Shown here one piece after another: positions 19,977 to 27,585 of a stretch of DNA of 64,000 nucleotides (the first letter of the stretch is position 1; every line of letters starts with the position of its first letter). The DNA lies in IMG/VR virus record IMGVR_UViG_3300028394_000037. One strand, written 5' to 3'. Origin of the DNA: a virus. Made by a program: the position numbers and the translations under genes. The notes below the pieces were generated by a model, which saw only the letters and a program-made list of their open reading frames with translations, did no database searches and had not been told where the DNA came from.

Positions 19977-22900
19977 TTAACCTATAAGTGCAAGAGATTC
20001 ATATGGATCACTATTAGAACCACCAATAAAACTACTTGTTCCTCTATTCATAGGAACAGGAACAGGAATTAACTCTGGTTCTGGAAGTTCTACAATAATA
20101 TCCTGCATTCCCATATTTTCATATCCAGCATAAGACTGAAGAACACTCATCAATTGAGGTTTAGTTTTTGCTGCGTTGAGATACTCTAAAAGATTTGGTG
20201 CAAGAGAATCCAATCCTCTTGTAGTATCGGCATCAAAAACGAATTCTGGTCTTCCGTTCTCGGCAAGAGTTGCAAGAGTGGGTTTCAAAACTCTTCCGCC
20301 TTTTGCAAATGCAGTTTTACCTCCACTTAAAGGTATATTTGGTAATGGTGTTATTTGTGGTTTAGTAGGTGGTTTCGGGGGTGGTGTTAATTGAAATGCT
20401 CGCGGAATTGTATAAGGTGTTGTTAAAGGTACTGGTGGTTTTGGTTTTGCTCTTGGCGCTGCTGGTGGTGATGATGCTACTGGTGACGAAGGTGCTTGTG
20501 GTCTAGATGCTGCATTACTTGGAATTCTATAAAATTTTCCAGAACCTCCATAAGTATTTTGATATTGTGATAGTGGAGCAATCCAGCTAAATTTTGCTCC
20601 ACTAGATGAATTTGATATAATATTACCATCTGGTAGAACAACTCCAATATGCTTTTGTCCATTTACAATATACAAATCTCCAGGCATTTGGTTTCCTGAA
20701 GCAATTCTTACATATCCAGAATTAATCATTGCAGATTCTGCATCCGGAACATTATTAGAATTTCCCCAAGGAGGAGTTAATCCCGCTTTTGAAAACACCT
20801 TATTTACTGCCCAAACACATGCATTATTTCCACCATCAGGTCCAGAAGCAGTAGACATTCCCTTTAACGATTTTGCAGATTCTGCTAAATTAGATGCTAC
20901 TGGACCAGAACCAGCTGGAGGTCTATAATTTCCATACTTGGCAAATAATTTATTTCCAAATGCTGCTCTACGTGGAGATTCTATTGCATAATCTCCAGGT
21001 ATTTCAAATTTCTTTAACCAAATATCAGATGCTTCTTGAAGACTCTTTGCGTTTTTAATTTCTTGCCATTGCCCTCTGTCTTGAGCTTCCCATTTTAAAC
21101 CAACCAATTGTCCCTCTAATGTATTGGGATCCATACCTTTAGAACTAATATATGCAGAAACTTTTGGCCACCTAATCTGTTTATCCCACTGTGCGATACC
21201 ATGATGTGTTATATTGTCTGCTTTTGGATCAAATCCACCTTCTTGTTGAAGATTTCCTGCAATACCTGCTGCTTGTTCTCCAGTCAATCCTTGAGATATC
21301 AAATAATGCATAGTTTTTTCTTCACCACTTGAACCAGAAAAATCTGCAGCACCTTCAACTCCAGGTTGTGATGGTGAAGAAGATGGGGTAGTTTTAATAT
21401 CCTCTGCCCCCTTTAATCTCATTTCTTTCATCAAATCATTAATAATATCATCAATTTTAGGAACAACTAAATTTTCAACTGAATTCTGCAACCATTTTGT
21501 TATATCTCCACCACCTAACATTGGTGAAACAGTAACTGGACCGCCAGATGCAAATGCTGTACCACCTCTTGTAATTTCATTTGAACTTGCAAGACTTATC
21601 CAGTTACTTAATCCATTTCCTGCATTCATATAATCAGTTTTATCTGGTTTTTGTCCAAGAATTGCTTTAATTGGCAATCCAAATAAAGGAGCTAAGTCAG
21701 AACCTTCACTCATAGTTTTGAAGGATTTCTCCATATAACCAAGTGGATTTATTGATTTATTATCGCTATTCTCTGGGAATATTTTTGATATATTCTTTTT
21801 ACCACCAATACTTGCACCAGGTTTTACTGGTGTTGACTTAACATTTAAGGTTCTTCTTGGTTTTTTTAATGTTCTTTTTATAGGACCACTTGTAGATTTT
21901 CCACCTCTTGTTATTCGTCCTCCCCCTGCCGCTTTTTGTTTTTCTCCACCAGTCAATGAATCATAAAGCATTCCACCTGCAATATCACCAAGATATCCAC
22001 CAAGAATCGTTCCTGCAAATGGAACTGGTATAAGAGTTCCAAGAGCAGCCCCAGCAGTAGAACCAACTGCTTTTGCTGCTGCTCTACCTATAGGTTCTTC
22101 TCCCATTGCAACATTAATTGCAAAATCAATTAATCCACCAATAACAGGAACTCTTCCCAAACCTTTTGTTAGAAACTTTGCAGGACCCTTTCCCAAAAAC
22201 TTTATTGCTGCTCTTTGTGGTGCCTTGGAAAGTCCCCTTTTCATAATATTACCTTCTCCAGTTCCACCAAGAAGTCCTCTTTGAGGACCAAATCTTTCTG
22301 CAAGAGGTTTGAATTGTGATCTTACCCTGTTAAGAGCACCTTTTTGTGATTTTCCATTTTTTAGATCATTTTCAAACATTCTGGCAGCATCATTGCCATA
22401 GGTTTTCTCAATTTTTTTTATTCTTTTATTTCTATCAAAATAATCTAAATTTGAACCTTTACCGCTATTACCATTAGGTCTTGTGGGTTTAGTTCCTTTA
22501 GGACCCTTGCCCTTTCCAGTTGCAAGCATACCAAAAATAAGAGCACCATTAATAAATGCAGTAAATGCTCCTTCAAATTTTTTAAACATCTTGAGGGCAC
22601 CGTCACCCCCAATATCTTTGATAAACTTTTCAGTTTTATCAATTGCTTTATATCCCCAATCAATAAAAGTTACTAATCCATCAAGTGCTTTTCCTCCCCA
22701 ATCAAGAAGAAAATTAAATACTGGAGTTGCAAGTTTTATAAAACCTATAAGTTTTGGTAAATGCGGTATTAAATTATAAACAAAATACCCAATCAATGTT
22801 TTAAAAATAAAATTTTTAAGAAAACCCAAAAATCCAAGTCCTGGTATAGAAGGAACTTTAAATTTATTATCCTTATCTTTTTGTTTATTTTCTAATTTTT

Positions 22901-23168
22901 TTTCATTCTTATCACTAGTTTCCTCTTCTTTTTGTATTCTATTTTTTTCTGTTTGTTTCTTTTTGAATAATGTAGTACTAGCAAATATATCTCTAATACG
23001 TAAAACTTTTTTACCAATTGAATTTAAAATATTATTATCATTATCTTCATTTTTATCTTCTACTGGAGATAATACTTTAGATGTATTAATTTTCGTCGTT
23101 TTTGGACGAATATTAATACTTACTTTTGGTTTTGATGATGGTAAAAGTTTATCTTTAGTAATTGCCAT
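19977..23168 (-). CDS. Tape-measure-like virion protein with a phage tail lysozyme domain and an NlpC/P60-like peptidase domain
   Basis: Helical N-terminus; AAGIAGNLQQEGGFDP..GIAQWD; NNACVWAV...PGD..HIGVV. Confidence 0.65.
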   Translation of the reverse strand: MAITKDKLLPSSKPKVSINIRPKTTKINTSKVLSPVEDKNEDNDNNILNSIGKKVLRIRDIFASTTLFKKKQTEKNRIQKEEETSDKNEKKLENKQKDKDNKFKVPSIPGLGFLGFLKNFIFKTLIGYFVYNLIPHLPKLIGFIKLATPVFNFLLDWGGKALDGLVTFIDWGYKAIDKTEKFIKDIGGDGALKMFKKFEGAFTAFINGALIFGMLATGKGKGPKGTKPTRPNGNSGKGSNLDYFDRNKRIKKIEKTYGNDAARMFENDLKNGKSQKGALNRVRSQFKPLAERFGPQRGLLGGTGEGNIMKRGLSKAPQRAAIKFLGKGPAKFLTKGLGRVPVIGGLIDFAINVAMGEEPIGRAAAKAVGSTAGAALGTLIPVPFAGTILGGYLGDIAGGMLYDSLTGGEKQKAAGGGRITRGGKSTSGPIKRTLKKPRRTLNVKSTPVKPGASIGGKKNISKIFPENSDNKSINPLGYMEKSFKTMSEGSDLAPLFGLPIKAILGQKPDKTDYMNAGNGLSNWISLASSNEITRGGTAFASGGPVTVSPMLGGGDITKWLQNSVENLVVPKIDDIINDLMKEMRLKGAEDIKTTPSSSPSQPGVEGAADFSGSSGEEKTMHYLISQGLTGEQAAGIAGNLQQEGGFDPKADNITHHGIAQWDKQIRWPKVSAYISSKGMDPNTLEGQLVGLKWEAQDRGQWQEIKNAKSLQEASDIWLKKFEIPGDYAIESPRRAAFGNKLFAKYGNYRPPAGSGPVASNLAESAKSLKGMSTASGPDGGNNACVWAVNKVFSKAGLTPPWGNSNNVPDAESAMINSGYVRIASGNQMPGDLYIVNGQKHIGVVLPDGNIISNSSSGAKFSWIAPLSQYQNTYGGSGKFYRIPSNAASRPQAPSSPVASSPPAAPRAKPKPPVPLTTPYTIPRAFQLTPPPKPPTKPQITPLPNIPLSGGKTAFAKGGRVLKPTLATLAENGRPEFVFDADTTRGLDSLAPNLLEYLNAAKTKPQLMSVLQSYAGYENMGMQDIIVELPEPELIPVPVPMNRGTSSFIGGSNSDPYESLALIG

Positions 23169-23172
23169 TGTT

Positions 23173-25827
23173 TTAATTTATTCCCAAAGTCTTTGCAGTT
23201 CTAGAATTACCATCAGGATGAATAGCACTAAAATTAGGAACAGATTGTGATTTTGAACTTCCAGATGACGGTTTTGATTTTTTACTTGCAGGAATAACTA
23301 TTACTCTTGGTTGTGATGAAATTGGAGGAGTAATTTGATTTACTGATGGATTGAGTTTTGTAGGAGCAATTGTAGATTCTTCTGCTCTTACAGGTGGTGT
23401 AAATACTGAATTAACTACCGATCCTATTGTAGATTTTAAGGATCCAAATAAATCTGGTTGTAATTGTGGTGCCTGTGATACCTGTTCTTTTAAATCAGAT
23501 TTGGGTTTAGAAGAATATGCTTTTGCAACATCAGGATTTCTAAAATATATTAATTGTTTTGTTCCTGGCCATCCTGCTTTAGACATTTCAGGAGTCATCA
23601 AATTAGTAAATGTTCCTCGACCCGAAGAATTATTTGCAATTCTACCATCTGGCATTACTATTCCAATATGCCCATATGGTTCAGGATCTCCAGTCCCACG
23701 CGGATCATTCCATATTACAATATCTCCAGGTTTTCTTTTATCTTCAGAAACTTTGACAAAAGTTTTGTTCAATGACTTATAAATTTTTGGAACATTCTTT
23801 ATATTATCAATACCTTTCCAAGGAAGTGTTAATCCTGCTCTATTATATACCTCATTAATTGCTGGCGCACATCCATTACCAGGATCTTCACGATATCCCC
23901 ATTGTTCTTTTTGCATTTGTGCTGCAGCTTTTACAAGAGGATCAACATATCTGGAGGGTTTAAACTTGGGAACTGACGGACCATATTTTTCAGGTACTTT
24001 ATTATCATTTTTATTAGAGAAAATATTTTTTATAACATTTGCACCTTGATTAATTGCACTTGAAACTAAATTAATTGGTGTAGTATTTTGATTTGTCAAA
24101 GGTGAAAATGGAGGGTCTCCAATCAATCCACCACCAGCAGCATAAGTGTTTCCTTTAATAATTCTTGGGCGATTCGTTCCTCCACCCATAGCATTCATTG
24201 TTTCTAAAGTATTGACACCGAACAGCTGGGTCGCACCAGGAGACATCACAAACTCACCATCGGAAAGCATAGCAGGAATTTTATCAATTCCAGATTCTCC
24301 AGATACTTTCCCATCATTATCAAAAAATTGCCTTACCTTATGTAATCCACCGCCTATCAGACCAGCCATTTGACCGGCACCAAAACTTCCTGCCTCAATT
24401 GTTGAGGTTATTATACCTTCTTTAGTTTGTTGTTCTTTTGATTTTTGAGTTGGTTTTGATTGATCTTCTTTACCAAAAAGTTGTTCTCTTCTATCTTTCT
24501 TCTGATTTATTTCATTTATTCCAACACCAGTCATTACTGCAGCACCAGCAATTATACCAGCGGCAAGTGGATTTGCTGCAGCAAATTGTGCAATACCACG
24601 AATTAATATACCACTAATAGTTCTAATAAATCCACCAAGAGTGGTTCCAAATAAGAAATATGCACTCAAAAGTGCAGGCCAATAATCTTTAAAAAATCTC
24701 AAAACAGACTTGAGTTTATCTTGATTTTCTTTTTTTCCAATCCAGTCTATTAAATTATAAATTACTTTACCAATAAGCATAGATACAAAGAAATCAATAA
24801 TCTTATCCAATATTGACTTAACTGGCGAAAGAAGTTTTTGTGCAATCTTTTGAACTGCACCAAATCTTTTTTCCATTCCTTCTTCAATGCCTTTTCTTTT
24901 ATTTGCCTCTTTCTTCTTTCTCTCGTTTTCTGCATTCTTTCTATCTTGCTTATCTTGATCAACAATGCTTTTTAAAATATTATCAAGTGCTTTTTGAATA
25001 TCCTTAATAGGACCTTTCTTTTCTTCTGATTTTTTTATATCAGGAACTTCTGATGTTCCTTTTAATAAAAAATTATTTTTTATTAAATTTGATGGTCTTG
25101 TAATTCTTACATTATCTACTGTTATTTTTTTCCTTTCTACTTTAAATCTACCTACTTTATCTTTAACTCTTTCAAACTCATCTTGAATTAAAATTTGCTC
25201 TTCTGGATGAAGGTTAGATTTTCCTGTAGAAATTAAAACAGATTGTTCTTTTAAAAGACTTTTATACGTTCCATAATCAATATCAACTACATCATCTAAT
25301 CCAAGAATACGAAGAATTCTTTCATCAATCTTCTCCGTAATCAGATCTGCTTCATTAACTCCTCCTGTAGGAACTAATGCAGATTTTGAAGGTTCTTTTG
25401 TTGCAGTAGCAGTAGCAGTAGCAGTAGATTTTGCTTTTGCTTTTGCTTTTTGTATTTCCCTTTCTTTTTGTATTTCCTTTAATCTAGACTCTATTGCGAC
25501 ATCTTCAATTTTTTTATCTGCCTGTTTACGAAATGGTTTTTCAAGATATTCATCCACCAACCACTTCTGATACTTTTCATATCTTTCAATAAATTCAGCA
25601 CTATTAGCAGAATAATTAAATATTGGAAAACCTCTTGGATCCTTTTTTAGATTCTCAATTAATCTATCAGAATCTGCGTCACCAAGATTGACAGTAGAAT
25701 ATTTTCCGGCACCAGTCAGTTGGTCTTTAAGTTGTGACCAAACTTTTTCAGGATCACGCGGGTTACCCCAAGACATTTCGGGGTTTAATACTCCTTCTGG
25801 TGGTTGTGGAAGATTATTCACATCCAT
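23173..25827 (-). CDS. Tape-measure-like virion protein with an NlpC/P60/CHAP-like domain
   Basis: Coiled-coil N-terminus; DKIPAMLSDGEFVM motif; GNGCAPAIN...PGDIVIW..GHIGIV. Confidence 0.6.
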   Translation of the reverse strand: MDVNNLPQPPEGVLNPEMSWGNPRDPEKVWSQLKDQLTGAGKYSTVNLGDADSDRLIENLKKDPRGFPIFNYSANSAEFIERYEKYQKWLVDEYLEKPFRKQADKKIEDVAIESRLKEIQKEREIQKAKAKAKSTATATATATKEPSKSALVPTGGVNEADLITEKIDERILRILGLDDVVDIDYGTYKSLLKEQSVLISTGKSNLHPEEQILIQDEFERVKDKVGRFKVERKKITVDNVRITRPSNLIKNNFLLKGTSEVPDIKKSEEKKGPIKDIQKALDNILKSIVDQDKQDRKNAENERKKKEANKRKGIEEGMEKRFGAVQKIAQKLLSPVKSILDKIIDFFVSMLIGKVIYNLIDWIGKKENQDKLKSVLRFFKDYWPALLSAYFLFGTTLGGFIRTISGILIRGIAQFAAANPLAAGIIAGAAVMTGVGINEINQKKDRREQLFGKEDQSKPTQKSKEQQTKEGIITSTIEAGSFGAGQMAGLIGGGLHKVRQFFDNDGKVSGESGIDKIPAMLSDGEFVMSPGATQLFGVNTLETMNAMGGGTNRPRIIKGNTYAAGGGLIGDPPFSPLTNQNTTPINLVSSAINQGANVIKNIFSNKNDNKVPEKYGPSVPKFKPSRYVDPLVKAAAQMQKEQWGYREDPGNGCAPAINEVYNRAGLTLPWKGIDNIKNVPKIYKSLNKTFVKVSEDKRKPGDIVIWNDPRGTGDPEPYGHIGIVMPDGRIANNSSGRGTFTNLMTPEMSKAGWPGTKQLIYFRNPDVAKAYSSKPKSDLKEQVSQAPQLQPDLFGSLKSTIGSVVNSVFTPPVRAEESTIAPTKLNPSVNQITPPISSQPRVIVIPASKKSKPSSGSSKSQSVPNFSAIHPDGNSRTAKTLGIN
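25401..25452 (-). repeat. In-frame hexamer microsatellites encoding KAKAKAKS-TATATATAT
   Basis: (gcagta)x4 next to (ttttgc)x3. Confidence 0.8.
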
Positions 25828-25994
25828 TAATTTTGCCTTTGCTGCTGTTTAAGTTTTTCTTCTTCTAAATGCTGTTTTAAGAGTTCAACATAAATATCCC
25901 TCTCCCATGGCATCATATTTTCAATCTCTGTTAATGAATATTTATGATACTGCATCAAGGCAAAATTAAGTCTAAAATAATTTTCCAGATCCAT
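25827..25994 (-). CDS. gp51: Baseplate hub assembly protein gp51 (55 aa; possibly made as a -1 frameshift extension of gp26)
   Basis: MDLENYFRLNFALMQYHKYSLTEIENMMPWERDIYVELL...; below the track cutoff. Confidence 0.8.
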   Translation of the reverse strand: MDLENYFRLNFALMQYHKYSLTEIENMMPWERDIYVELLKQHLEEEKLKQQQRQN

Positions 25995-26005
25995 ATGGAT
26001 CAGGG

Positions 26006-26725
26006 CTATGCGAAAAAACTTGATAACCCTTCTAAAGTAACTTCGTTTTCTACTTCTGTTTTTGGATTGATCACAATCAATTTATGAGAAAGTTTTGGCA
26101 TAGTCTCAAAAAATTCTTCAATTTTCTTAAATTGTGATGAATTCATTTGATCCAAAAATTCAATCATTTCTTTTTTAGTTACGTCAGAAGATGACCAAAC
26201 TTCTTCCTCCGTATAAATTTTATCCACACAAGATGCAATCAATTCAAATGATTGATCCATAGAGTTTTGATTTTTAAAATCAAAATTTGCTTTAATAAAC
26301 TGATCCAATGATGGATATTTCATTTCCATCATAACACTATCATCTATTTTTATTTTATTTGTATGTTCTTCATTCTTACAAACTTTAATTGAATCAACAT
26401 CAATTTTTACTAATACAGTTGTCTCGCCATCATCGGGACAAATCACATTAACTTCAATTTCTTCTCCAACAGATTTACCACGAATATTTAAAAACAGAAA
26501 CTCAATATCAAATGTGGGAAGTGTTTCTACTTTAATATTTTTTGTAAAAATGCAATTTTTGATAACATTTTTAATTGCATTTGTAATTTGTTTTGTATCT
26601 TCACTTTCCAATGCAATCAACAATACCTTTTCCTCTTTAACAAGAAATGGACGGTATTTAATCAGTTCTCCTGTTGATGGAAGTTCCAACTCATATGTTG
26701 GTGTAGAAATTTTTGGTAAAGGCAT
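26006..26725 (-). CDS. gp26: Baseplate hub subunit/chaperone gp26
   Basis: MPLPKI.TPTYELELPSTG..IKYRPFLVKEEK.LL...FDIE.LFL.IRGKSVGE. Confidence 0.9.
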   Translation of the reverse strand: MPLPKISTPTYELELPSTGELIKYRPFLVKEEKVLLIALESEDTKQITNAIKNVIKNCIFTKNIKVETLPTFDIEFLFLNIRGKSVGEEIEVNVICPDDGETTVLVKIDVDSIKVCKNEEHTNKIKIDDSVMMEMKYPSLDQFIKANFDFKNQNSMDQSFELIASCVDKIYTEEEVWSSSDVTKKEMIEFLDQMNSSQFKKIEEFFETMPKLSHKLIVINPKTEVENEVTLEGLSSFFA

Positions 26726-26754: not shown

Positions 26755-27585
26755 TTATGCGCGAGCACCAAGATTAAAATTTGGAAAATTATTAGCAGGG
26801 TTTACAAATGTTGTTGGTGTTTGTATATCTGAAGTTCCAAAATTATTACCAACAGGACCAGAAACATATCCTTTTGGTGTTGGTATATTAGGATCAGTTC
26901 CCCAATCAGTTCCAAACTGAGGATCAGTAGAACCTGTTTGATTATTAATTTTTTCTTGAGTTATAGTATCACTACCAAGAACATATCTTATATAAGTAAA
27001 AGAAACAGTACATTTTAATAAAGATGAACTGTCATATGATACTGGCATAGATATGATACTAATTGGATATGCATTAATAAATCTATAACTCAAAGATTTT
27101 CCGGCATAGTCTTTTTCAAATTTTTTGATATATATTGCCGATGTAATATAATCATCTGGATAATGCATTCTATAATAATAATTTCCGGTATCCAATCCTT
27201 GAGATATTTGCTCATTCGTAATATATCCCAACCAATTTTCAAAAAAATAAATGATTGAATAATCGTGATCTACATAAAAAGTAAAATCCGCACGATCATC
27301 ATATAATCTTCTGTATGCAAATCTTTGAGTTACACCAGTATAATCACTATTATTCTCGTGAGTTGCCAATGATGATCCAGGAAGAGATGCCTCACAACAA
27401 GATAATGAAATGAGTTCAGAATTATATTCTTTACCTAAACCAGCCTCAGCACGTTGCTTTACCCACTTTTCTACCTCCTTTGGTGGATTAAACCAACATT
27501 GAAACTGTGAAGTAAGTGCAGGATTTAATAGTTTTGATTTAATATCAGAAACACTAACTCTTTTAGCAGATGGTGTTGAGGGCAT
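26755..27585 (-). CDS. Tail tube-like/baseplate-tube junction protein (gp19/gp54 family)
   Basis: C.EASLPG.S..T; R.Y....FTFYVD; AYP.SI....VSY....L....V.F.Y. Confidence 0.65.
   Translation of the reverse strand: MPSTPSAKRVSVSDIKSKLLNPALTSQFQCWFNPPKEVEKWVKQRAEAGLGKEYNSELISLSCCEASLPGSSLATHENNSDYTGVTQRFAYRRLYDDRADFTFYVDHDYSIIYFFENWLGYITNEQISQGLDTGNYYYRMHYPDDYITSAIYIKKFEKDYAGKSLSYRFINAYPISIISMPVSYDSSSLLKCTVSFTYIRYVLGSDTITQEKINNQTGSTDPQFGTDWGTDPNIPTPKGYVSGPVGNNFGTSDIQTPTTFVNPANNFPNFNLGARA

Follow-up and report, generated by a model that had tools for sequence, protein, structure and literature searches.

The stretch of DNA analysed here, 64,000 nucleotides (nt) of the IMG/VR virus record IMGVR_UViG_3300028394_000037 and hereafter called the window, carries on its minus strand two adjacent open reading frames (ORFs), gp26 and 'gp51', whose junction has the appearance of a programmed -1 frameshift site. 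The nearest cultured relatives of this virus are T4-like cyanophages, e.g., S-SM2 and Bellamy, at ~74% nucleotide identity. The product of gp26 belongs to the T4 gp26/gp51 baseplate hub assembly family, as profile searches matched it to PF12322 over the full length of the profile (E 1.7e-73, positions 2-219 of 219) and to phrog_150 (E 1e-76), the latter profile being filled up to position 232. The short product of 'gp51' matches phrog_634 ('baseplate hub assembly catalyst', E 9.8e-27, positions 63-117) and also phrog_150, the very profile matched by gp26, where it covers positions 242-281 only, which correspond to the C-terminal extension of the family.

On the minus strand the 3' end of gp26 reads ...TCA AGT TTT TTC GCA TAG and contains the heptamer T_TTT_TTC in the zero frame, in the X_XXY_YYZ phase of canonical -1 sites. 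The distance between the two ORF starts (26725-25994 = 731 = 2 mod 3) puts 'gp51' in the -1 frame, and the -1 reading CGC ATA GCC CTG ATC CAT ATG is free of stops, the 12 nt between the heptamer and the ATG being open. The conceptual slip product amounts to 238 + 61 = 299 amino acids (aa), with the conceptual junction peptides ...LEGLSSFFR and IALIHMDLENYFR, as against ...LEGLSSFFA at the zero-frame C-terminus. No purine-rich Shine-Dalgarno motif precedes the ATG of gp51, and the RNA downstream folds at minimum free energy (-9.5 kcal/mol, z -1.86) into a stem-loop that encloses this ATG. The original prediction had described these elements almost as we find them, namely a T TTT TTC heptamer in the correct frame one sense codon before the stop, a -1 frame running open into gp51 to yield a fusion of about 299 aa, a gp51 start without Shine-Dalgarno and a hairpin covering it some 8 nt downstream; the hairpin starts 7 nt after the heptamer, which lies within the ~5-9 nt at which the stimulatory structure of a canonical -1 site is expected. 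It is worth stressing that TTTTTTC occurs 47 times in the AT-rich window where 49 are expected; a lone copy is therefore not significant by count, and its significance has to rest on conservation. An upstream stimulator resembling a Shine-Dalgarno sequence was also sought in the codons of the LEGL motif (GAR GGN), and because all four Gly codons are used there, we see no sign of selection for such an element.

Table 1. Features of the gp26-gp51 locus and its neighbours in the window
Feature	Coordinates	Strand	Remarks
gp26, putative short chaperone form (TAC-N)	26725..26006	minus	239 aa; coordinates include the TAG stop
Candidate slippery heptamer T_TTT_TTC	26018..26012	minus	X_XXY_YYZ phase in the gp26 frame
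Predicted -1 frame extension	26012..25827	minus	61 codons and stop; C26012 would be read twice; contains the 55-aa 'gp51' ORF
Zero-frame TAG stop	26008..26006	minus	one sense codon (GCA) after the heptamer
Stem-loop CC.GAUCC-AUAU-GGAUC.GG	26004..25985	minus	starts 7 nt after the heptamer; encloses the gp51 ATG (25994..25992)
'gp51' ORF	25994..25827	minus	55 aa; name taken from the annotation of relatives
Upstream gene, paralog of the tail tube family	26755..27585	minus	276 aa
Downstream tape-measure-like protein	23173..25827	minus	884 aa; CHAP-like region
Second tape-measure-like protein	19977..23168	minus	1063 aa; tail lysozyme domain and CHAP-like region

Conservation of the junction

Two clades of metagenomic loci were compared. 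Clade 1 consists of 78 IMG/VR loci and the window itself (70-99% protein identity, 76 distinct junctions), and clade 2 of 76 loci around P0125 that are ~50% identical to the window. The heptamer, its phase and the open -1 frame are kept in 155/155 loci, which is what the original prediction had proposed to look for among relatives, and they recur in phages of other lineages. Clade 1 has T_TTT_TTC in 79/79 sequences, preceded every time by a T-ending codon (AGT, TCT, GGT, GAT or AAT), while elsewhere in gp26 the Phe codons are divided between TTT (72%) and TTC (28%) and Ser codons with A, C or G as third base, never encountered before the T-run, are common. The heptamer takes the form T_TTT_TTN in 76/76 loci of clade 2, with TTA (47), TTC (22), TTG (5) or TTT (2) as last codon, so that the encoded residue switches between Phe and Leu with T6 retained in all 76. 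The run is exactly T6 in ~150 of the 155 loci, T7 or T8 being limited to three loci together with Methylophilales phage Melnitz and Sinorhizobium phage phiM7. A single sense codon separates the heptamer from the stop in 79/79 sequences of clade 1 and 75/76 of clade 2, and the extension spans 60-66 aa in clade 1 and 59-70 aa over all loci.

The extension itself offers a second line of evidence. Before its conserved NYY motif, 74 of the 76 loci of clade 2 have no ATG and 55 have neither ATG, GTG nor TTG, the first Met being found usually at residue 18-19. The entropy of the three codon positions of the -1 frame is 0.52/0.36/1.06 bits in one clade and 0.53/0.40/1.02 bits in the other, position 3 being the most variable, and this holds also for the stretch that lies upstream of any start codon; because the codon-periodic variability extends that far, the -1 frame appears to be translated from the slip site. 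Start codons are occasionally missing among closer relatives as well: at L012:3214-3405, on a 258-kb IMG/VR contig, ATA is aligned to the ATG of gp51 and the linker contains no ATG, GTG or TTG, and at L045 a TTG takes the position of the ATG. To judge from the letters of L012, the long form can be devoid of its own start even inside the clade of the window.

The stem-loop is likewise under selection within clade 1. Over the 76 distinct junctions, its 7-pair helix has double-sided changes in 57 cells where 23 are expected; in this count and in covariation score it exceeds 500/500 shuffles, and it is also better than every slid register. The pair 27-38, for instance, is GC in 29, AU in 24 and GU in 11 cases, and the core of the helix was recovered independently by RNAalifold. 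When ranked by folding energy, the 30-nt segment beginning 5 nt past the heptamer falls, for 65% of loci, within the top 5% of the segments from the gene to which it belongs. Downstream of their slip sites, S-PM2 (-14 kcal/mol, z -4.2), S-CRM01 (z -3.2) and Acidovorax phage ACP17 (z -2.8) have hairpins that are not homologous to this one.

A T-run in the same phase followed by a -1 extension is also present in seven phages sampled from other lineages, namely Kyanoviridae, Emdodecavirus, Busanvirus, Ionavirus, Schizotequatrovirus and Emmerichvirinae. The gp26 gene ends in TCT TTT TTC GCA TAA in S-PM2, GAT TTT TTC TAA in S-CRM01, AGT TTT TTT TAA in Melnitz, AAT TTT TTT ACT TTG TGA in phiM7, GAT TTT TTC GTA TAA in both ACP17 and Vibrio phage KVP40, AGT TTT TTC GCT TAA in Aeromonas phage 65 and GAT TTT TTC GGT TGA in Delftia phage PhiW-14. 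A start codon for the conserved N-terminal part of the extension is absent in Melnitz, ACP17 and Aeromonas phage 65, and TAATG overlaps are found in KVP40 and S-CRM01. At the scale of the family, 96 of the 122 full-length representatives obtained by 50% clustering end in FF plus at most three residues and most of the others in F-L-x. The slip is annotated in none of the records of S-SM2, S-PM2, S-CRM01, Melnitz, phiM7, ACP17, KVP40, Aeromonas phage 65 and PhiW-14: public records give two separate genes, and some omit the extension or begin it at an internal Met. The gp51 of Melnitz is annotated in the latter manner, the extension of ACP17 (L087:3262-3416), which has no start codon, is unannotated, and that of Aeromonas phage 65 is reduced to a 26-codon piece called hypothetical protein (L176:2292-2372). 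Several JGI records (P0020, P0054, P0077 and P0084) call the homologs of gp26 'citrate lyase gamma subunit', which is clearly a mistake of annotation.

A variant of this arrangement was met in Vibrio phage VAP7 (Ackermannviridae, L178:2200-2430), where gp26 ends in CAC GTT TTT CGC TAA TG. The run is a T5 in a different phase, the heptamer is non-canonical, and the -1 ORF begins at a TAATG overlap. The run recalls the motif GTTTTT that has been reported in Vandenendeviridae (PMC12846349), and the mechanism in VAP7 may differ from that of the phages endowed with the slip site.

Chaperones of T4, lambda and HK97

In the T4 genome, gene 26 has gene 51 as its divergent neighbour. T4 gp26 (208 aa) consists of the PF12322 domain only, and T4 gp51 (249 aa) combines PF12322 (residues 1-201) with a C-terminal extension that reaches position 280/282 of phrog_150. 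Since T4 gp51 is a paralog of gp26 to which an extension has been added, T4 makes its chaperone pair from two genes. The earlier remark that gp26 and gp51 of T4-like phages are usually annotated as separate genes hides this relationship. We aligned the two T4 proteins with the conceptual -1 fusions obtained for the window and for seven other phages: T4 gp26 terminates (GLKEFFELL*) exactly where the fusions change frame, and T4 gp51 stays colinear with the extensions across the conserved positions N-F, S-L and P-x-E-R. The number of PF12322 genes is two in T4 and one each in S-PM2, phiM7, ACP17 and KVP40; the record to which the window belongs (108 kb, about half complete) also has one. In the two-gene phages the FF codons are non-slippery, TTC TTT in T4 and TTC TTC in a Karamvirus. 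The phage of the window differs therefore from T4 and Karamvirus, with their divergent genes and non-slippery FF codons, in having one PF12322 gene and a slip site, and resembles T4 in the family itself, in a short form that ends at the GL..FF motif and in the C-terminal extension of the long form. A long form of the T4 gp51 type (TAC-NC, where TAC stands for tail assembly chaperone), made of PF12322 and a C-extension of ~50 aa, would be obtained here only if the -1 slip occurs.

Comparison of structures points in the same direction. The AlphaFold2 model of gp26, built on 90 diverse sequences, has a pLDDT of 94.8, and the best three of 48,161 chains in an exhaustive VIA-align search were 3fgx (Z 8.0, root-mean-square deviation (rmsd) 4.0, 86 residues aligned), the HK97 tail assembly chaperone 2ob9 (Z 7.6, rmsd 3.4, 83 aligned, on residues 1-90) and YqbN, 3klu (Z 7.5, rmsd 4.1, 86 aligned). 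Pell et al. 2013 are reported to have described 3fgx and 3klu as relatives of the chaperones. All three matches fall on residues 1-96 of the model and the next one drops to Z 4.8; the N-terminal domain of gp26 is consequently predicted to adopt the tail assembly chaperone fold. A Foldseek search of the PDB with the same model returned no match at E <= 0.001, 2ob9 being at rank 9, and a profile search of PDB sequences gave no match. The predicted complex between the 61-aa extension and the upstream tube paralog scored 0.00 in a run that had no controls, and this score is taken neither for nor against an interaction. With regard to the rest of the protein, two Cys pairs (e.g., KCPECG or KCPKCG near the C-terminus) are found in T4 gp26, ACP17 and KVP40, a pattern which suggests a zinc ribbon. 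The C-terminal pair is lost in cyanophage gp26 (NPKTEVEN in the window), residues 88-239 of the model have weak structural matches to zinc ribbons, and the gp26 of KVP40 carries an insertion of ~45 residues.

The resemblance to lambda gpG/gpGT lies in a gene placed between the tube and tape-measure genes, in short and long forms with a common N-terminus, in a heptamer of the X_XXY_YYZ type close to the 3' end and in a -1 extension of ~60 aa; to this may be added the modelled likeness of the gp26 N-domain to the HK97 chaperone 2ob9. The differences are also substantial: sequence similarity to lambda gpG/gpGT is not detectable, gp26 has an extra region of ~150 residues after its chaperone-like domain, the phage is contractile-tailed with a more complex hub assembly than that of lambda, and the heptamer is U_UUU_UUC instead of the lambda G_GGA_AAG. 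Xu, Hendrix and Duda are said to have described, in Mol Cell in 2004, a -1 frameshift that is conserved among the genes of tail assembly chaperones. The suggestion of the original prediction that gp26 and gp51 form a G/GT pair gains support from the conservation of the site, the start-less loci, the colinearity with T4 gp51 and the HK97-like fold.

A proposed recoded gene and its rival explanations

We consider it highly probable that gp26 and 'gp51' constitute a single recoded gene, which in this T4-like cyanophage encodes the tail assembly chaperone. According to this proposal, most ribosomes would terminate at the TAG and produce a short form of 239 aa (TAC-N, the counterpart of T4 gp26), while a minority would slip by -1 on U_UUU_UUC, aided by the stem-loop that begins 7 nt further on and perhaps also by the nearby stop, and would read 61 further codons to yield a long form of 299 aa (TAC-NC, the counterpart of full-length T4 gp51). 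By analogy with lambda G/GT, both forms would act jointly on the tape-measure protein and bring in tube subunits, and the virion would contain neither of them. Several points weigh against this scheme. The slip is deduced from sequence only; the hairpin is short and its z is only -1.86 in the window, and no clear downstream structure was seen when KVP40 and Melnitz were folded. In 77/79 sequences of clade 1 an ATG persists at the annotated start of gp51 or close to it, so that reinitiation could yield a free 55-aa peptide as well in those clades where an ATG is retained. The hairpin could instead regulate the ATG that it encloses. As to the fold, structural Z scores that do not exceed 8 may reflect a common arrangement only.

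That the juxtaposition would be due to chance and have no function is exceedingly improbable: TTTTTTC is common in the AT-rich window, as the count given above indicates, but the position, the phase and the open -1 frame are found in 155/155 relatives and in the sampled phages of other lineages, which already refutes this explanation. The view that public records convey is that of two independent genes, in which termination-reinitiation at the ATG of gp51 would give a free 55-aa protein only and the T-run would do nothing more than encode a conserved Phe-Phe. The ATG in the linker of 77/79 clade-1 sequences, the TAATG overlaps of KVP40 and S-CRM01, which are typical of coupling, and the annotation of every public record inspected all speak in its favour. 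It is nonetheless very unlikely, for it leaves unexplained the invariant synonymous sites, the retention of T6 through a Phe to Leu change, the start-less loci with a conserved and codon-periodic N-terminal part, the fused architecture of T4 gp51 and the non-slippery FF codons of the two-gene phages.

A closer competitor is transcriptional slippage, whereby the RNA polymerase would add one U on T6 and a minority of in-frame mRNA would give an identical protein. An invariant homopolymeric T-run is predicted by transcriptional and ribosomal slippage alike, and a few per cent of the long form may suffice, as for lambda GT. Efficient slippage of bacterial RNA polymerase usually needs some 8-9 or more identical bases (A or T), and phase is then irrelevant. 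The run is strictly T6 in ~150/155 loci and rarely extended, which falls short of such a long homopolymer, and it stands always in the X_XXY_YYZ phase to which transcriptional slippage is indifferent. Furthermore, the covarying hairpin lies 3' of the run, is not yet transcribed while the polymerase is on the run, and sits where ribosomal stimulators do. We regard transcriptional slippage accordingly as improbable. Since the run is heptamer-long, always in phase and seldom lengthened, with a selected structure at the usual distance, ribosomal -1 slippage is the mechanism that fits these comparisons best.

How much of this was already established must be considered. Vladimirov, Gautam and Davidson (Virology 2022;566:9-15, doi 10.1016/j.virol.2021.11.003) are reported to have assigned the role of tail assembly chaperones in T4-like phages to gp26/gp51. 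The paper on Pseudomonas phage Adele (PMC12846349) cites them for poly-T -1 slippery sequences in T4-like TAC-N genes, and the PRFect paper says of their work that some T4-like phages, instead of frameshifting, possess a short gene together with a long fused one. The frameshift of the gp26/gp51 chaperone is treated here as known and appears to have been published in 2022, what remains being mainly a correction of annotation. It would be tempting to claim more, i.e., that the 2022 paper details T4 and its near relatives only, that the U_UUU_UUN slip, the covarying stem-loop burying a vestigial gp51 AUG and the start-less marine clades are undescribed, and that a recoded single gene is common across Kyanoviridae and several T4-like lineages, the two genes of T4 being a later duplication; we judge that all of this holds together to be doubtful, with the odds clearly against it. 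The locus of Adele (Vandenendeviridae/Andersonviridae, GTTTTT motif) is alike in the T-run with which its short-form gene ends, its uninterrupted -1 frame and a downstream ORF misannotated as a separate hypothetical gene, and differs in protein family and lineage (PMC12846349).

Should the recoded gene be accepted, T4-like phages would no longer be an apparent exception among long-tailed phages, which make a short and a long chaperone from overlapping frames, and the 'gp51, baseplate hub assembly catalyst' of cyanophage records would represent no more than the C-terminal part of the actual product. The practical value lies in annotation and in a well-controlled natural set of slip-site variants (Z = C, A, G, T).

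Neighbouring genes

The order of genes at the locus, tube paralog, gp26, gp51 and two tape-measure-like genes, places the pair where tail assembly chaperones are encoded, and the same order is found in S-SM2, S-PM2, phiM7 and KVP40. It had been noted beforehand that the pair stands directly upstream of tape-measure-like genes, with which the profile matches of the next two genes agree. The ATG of the 884-aa tape-measure-like gene overlaps the stop of gp51. On the other side of gp26, the 276-aa protein matches phrog_45 'tail tube' (E 4.8e-33) and PF23849 Phage_TTP_2 (E 7e-15), and its position is occupied by a duplicated gp19 in the annotation of KVP40 and by a tail tube monomer in that of phiM7. 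Its identity with gp54 was considered; because BLASTP gave no match to the gp54 proteins of either T4 or Aeromonas phage 65, this name was not given to the tube paralog. The 1063-aa protein falls into the tape-measure families phrog_9570 and phrog_167 and matches PF18013 (E 1.3e-24). Two very large tape-measure-like genes thus follow each other on the minus strand (19977-25827), and either could be the length ruler equivalent to T4 gp29.

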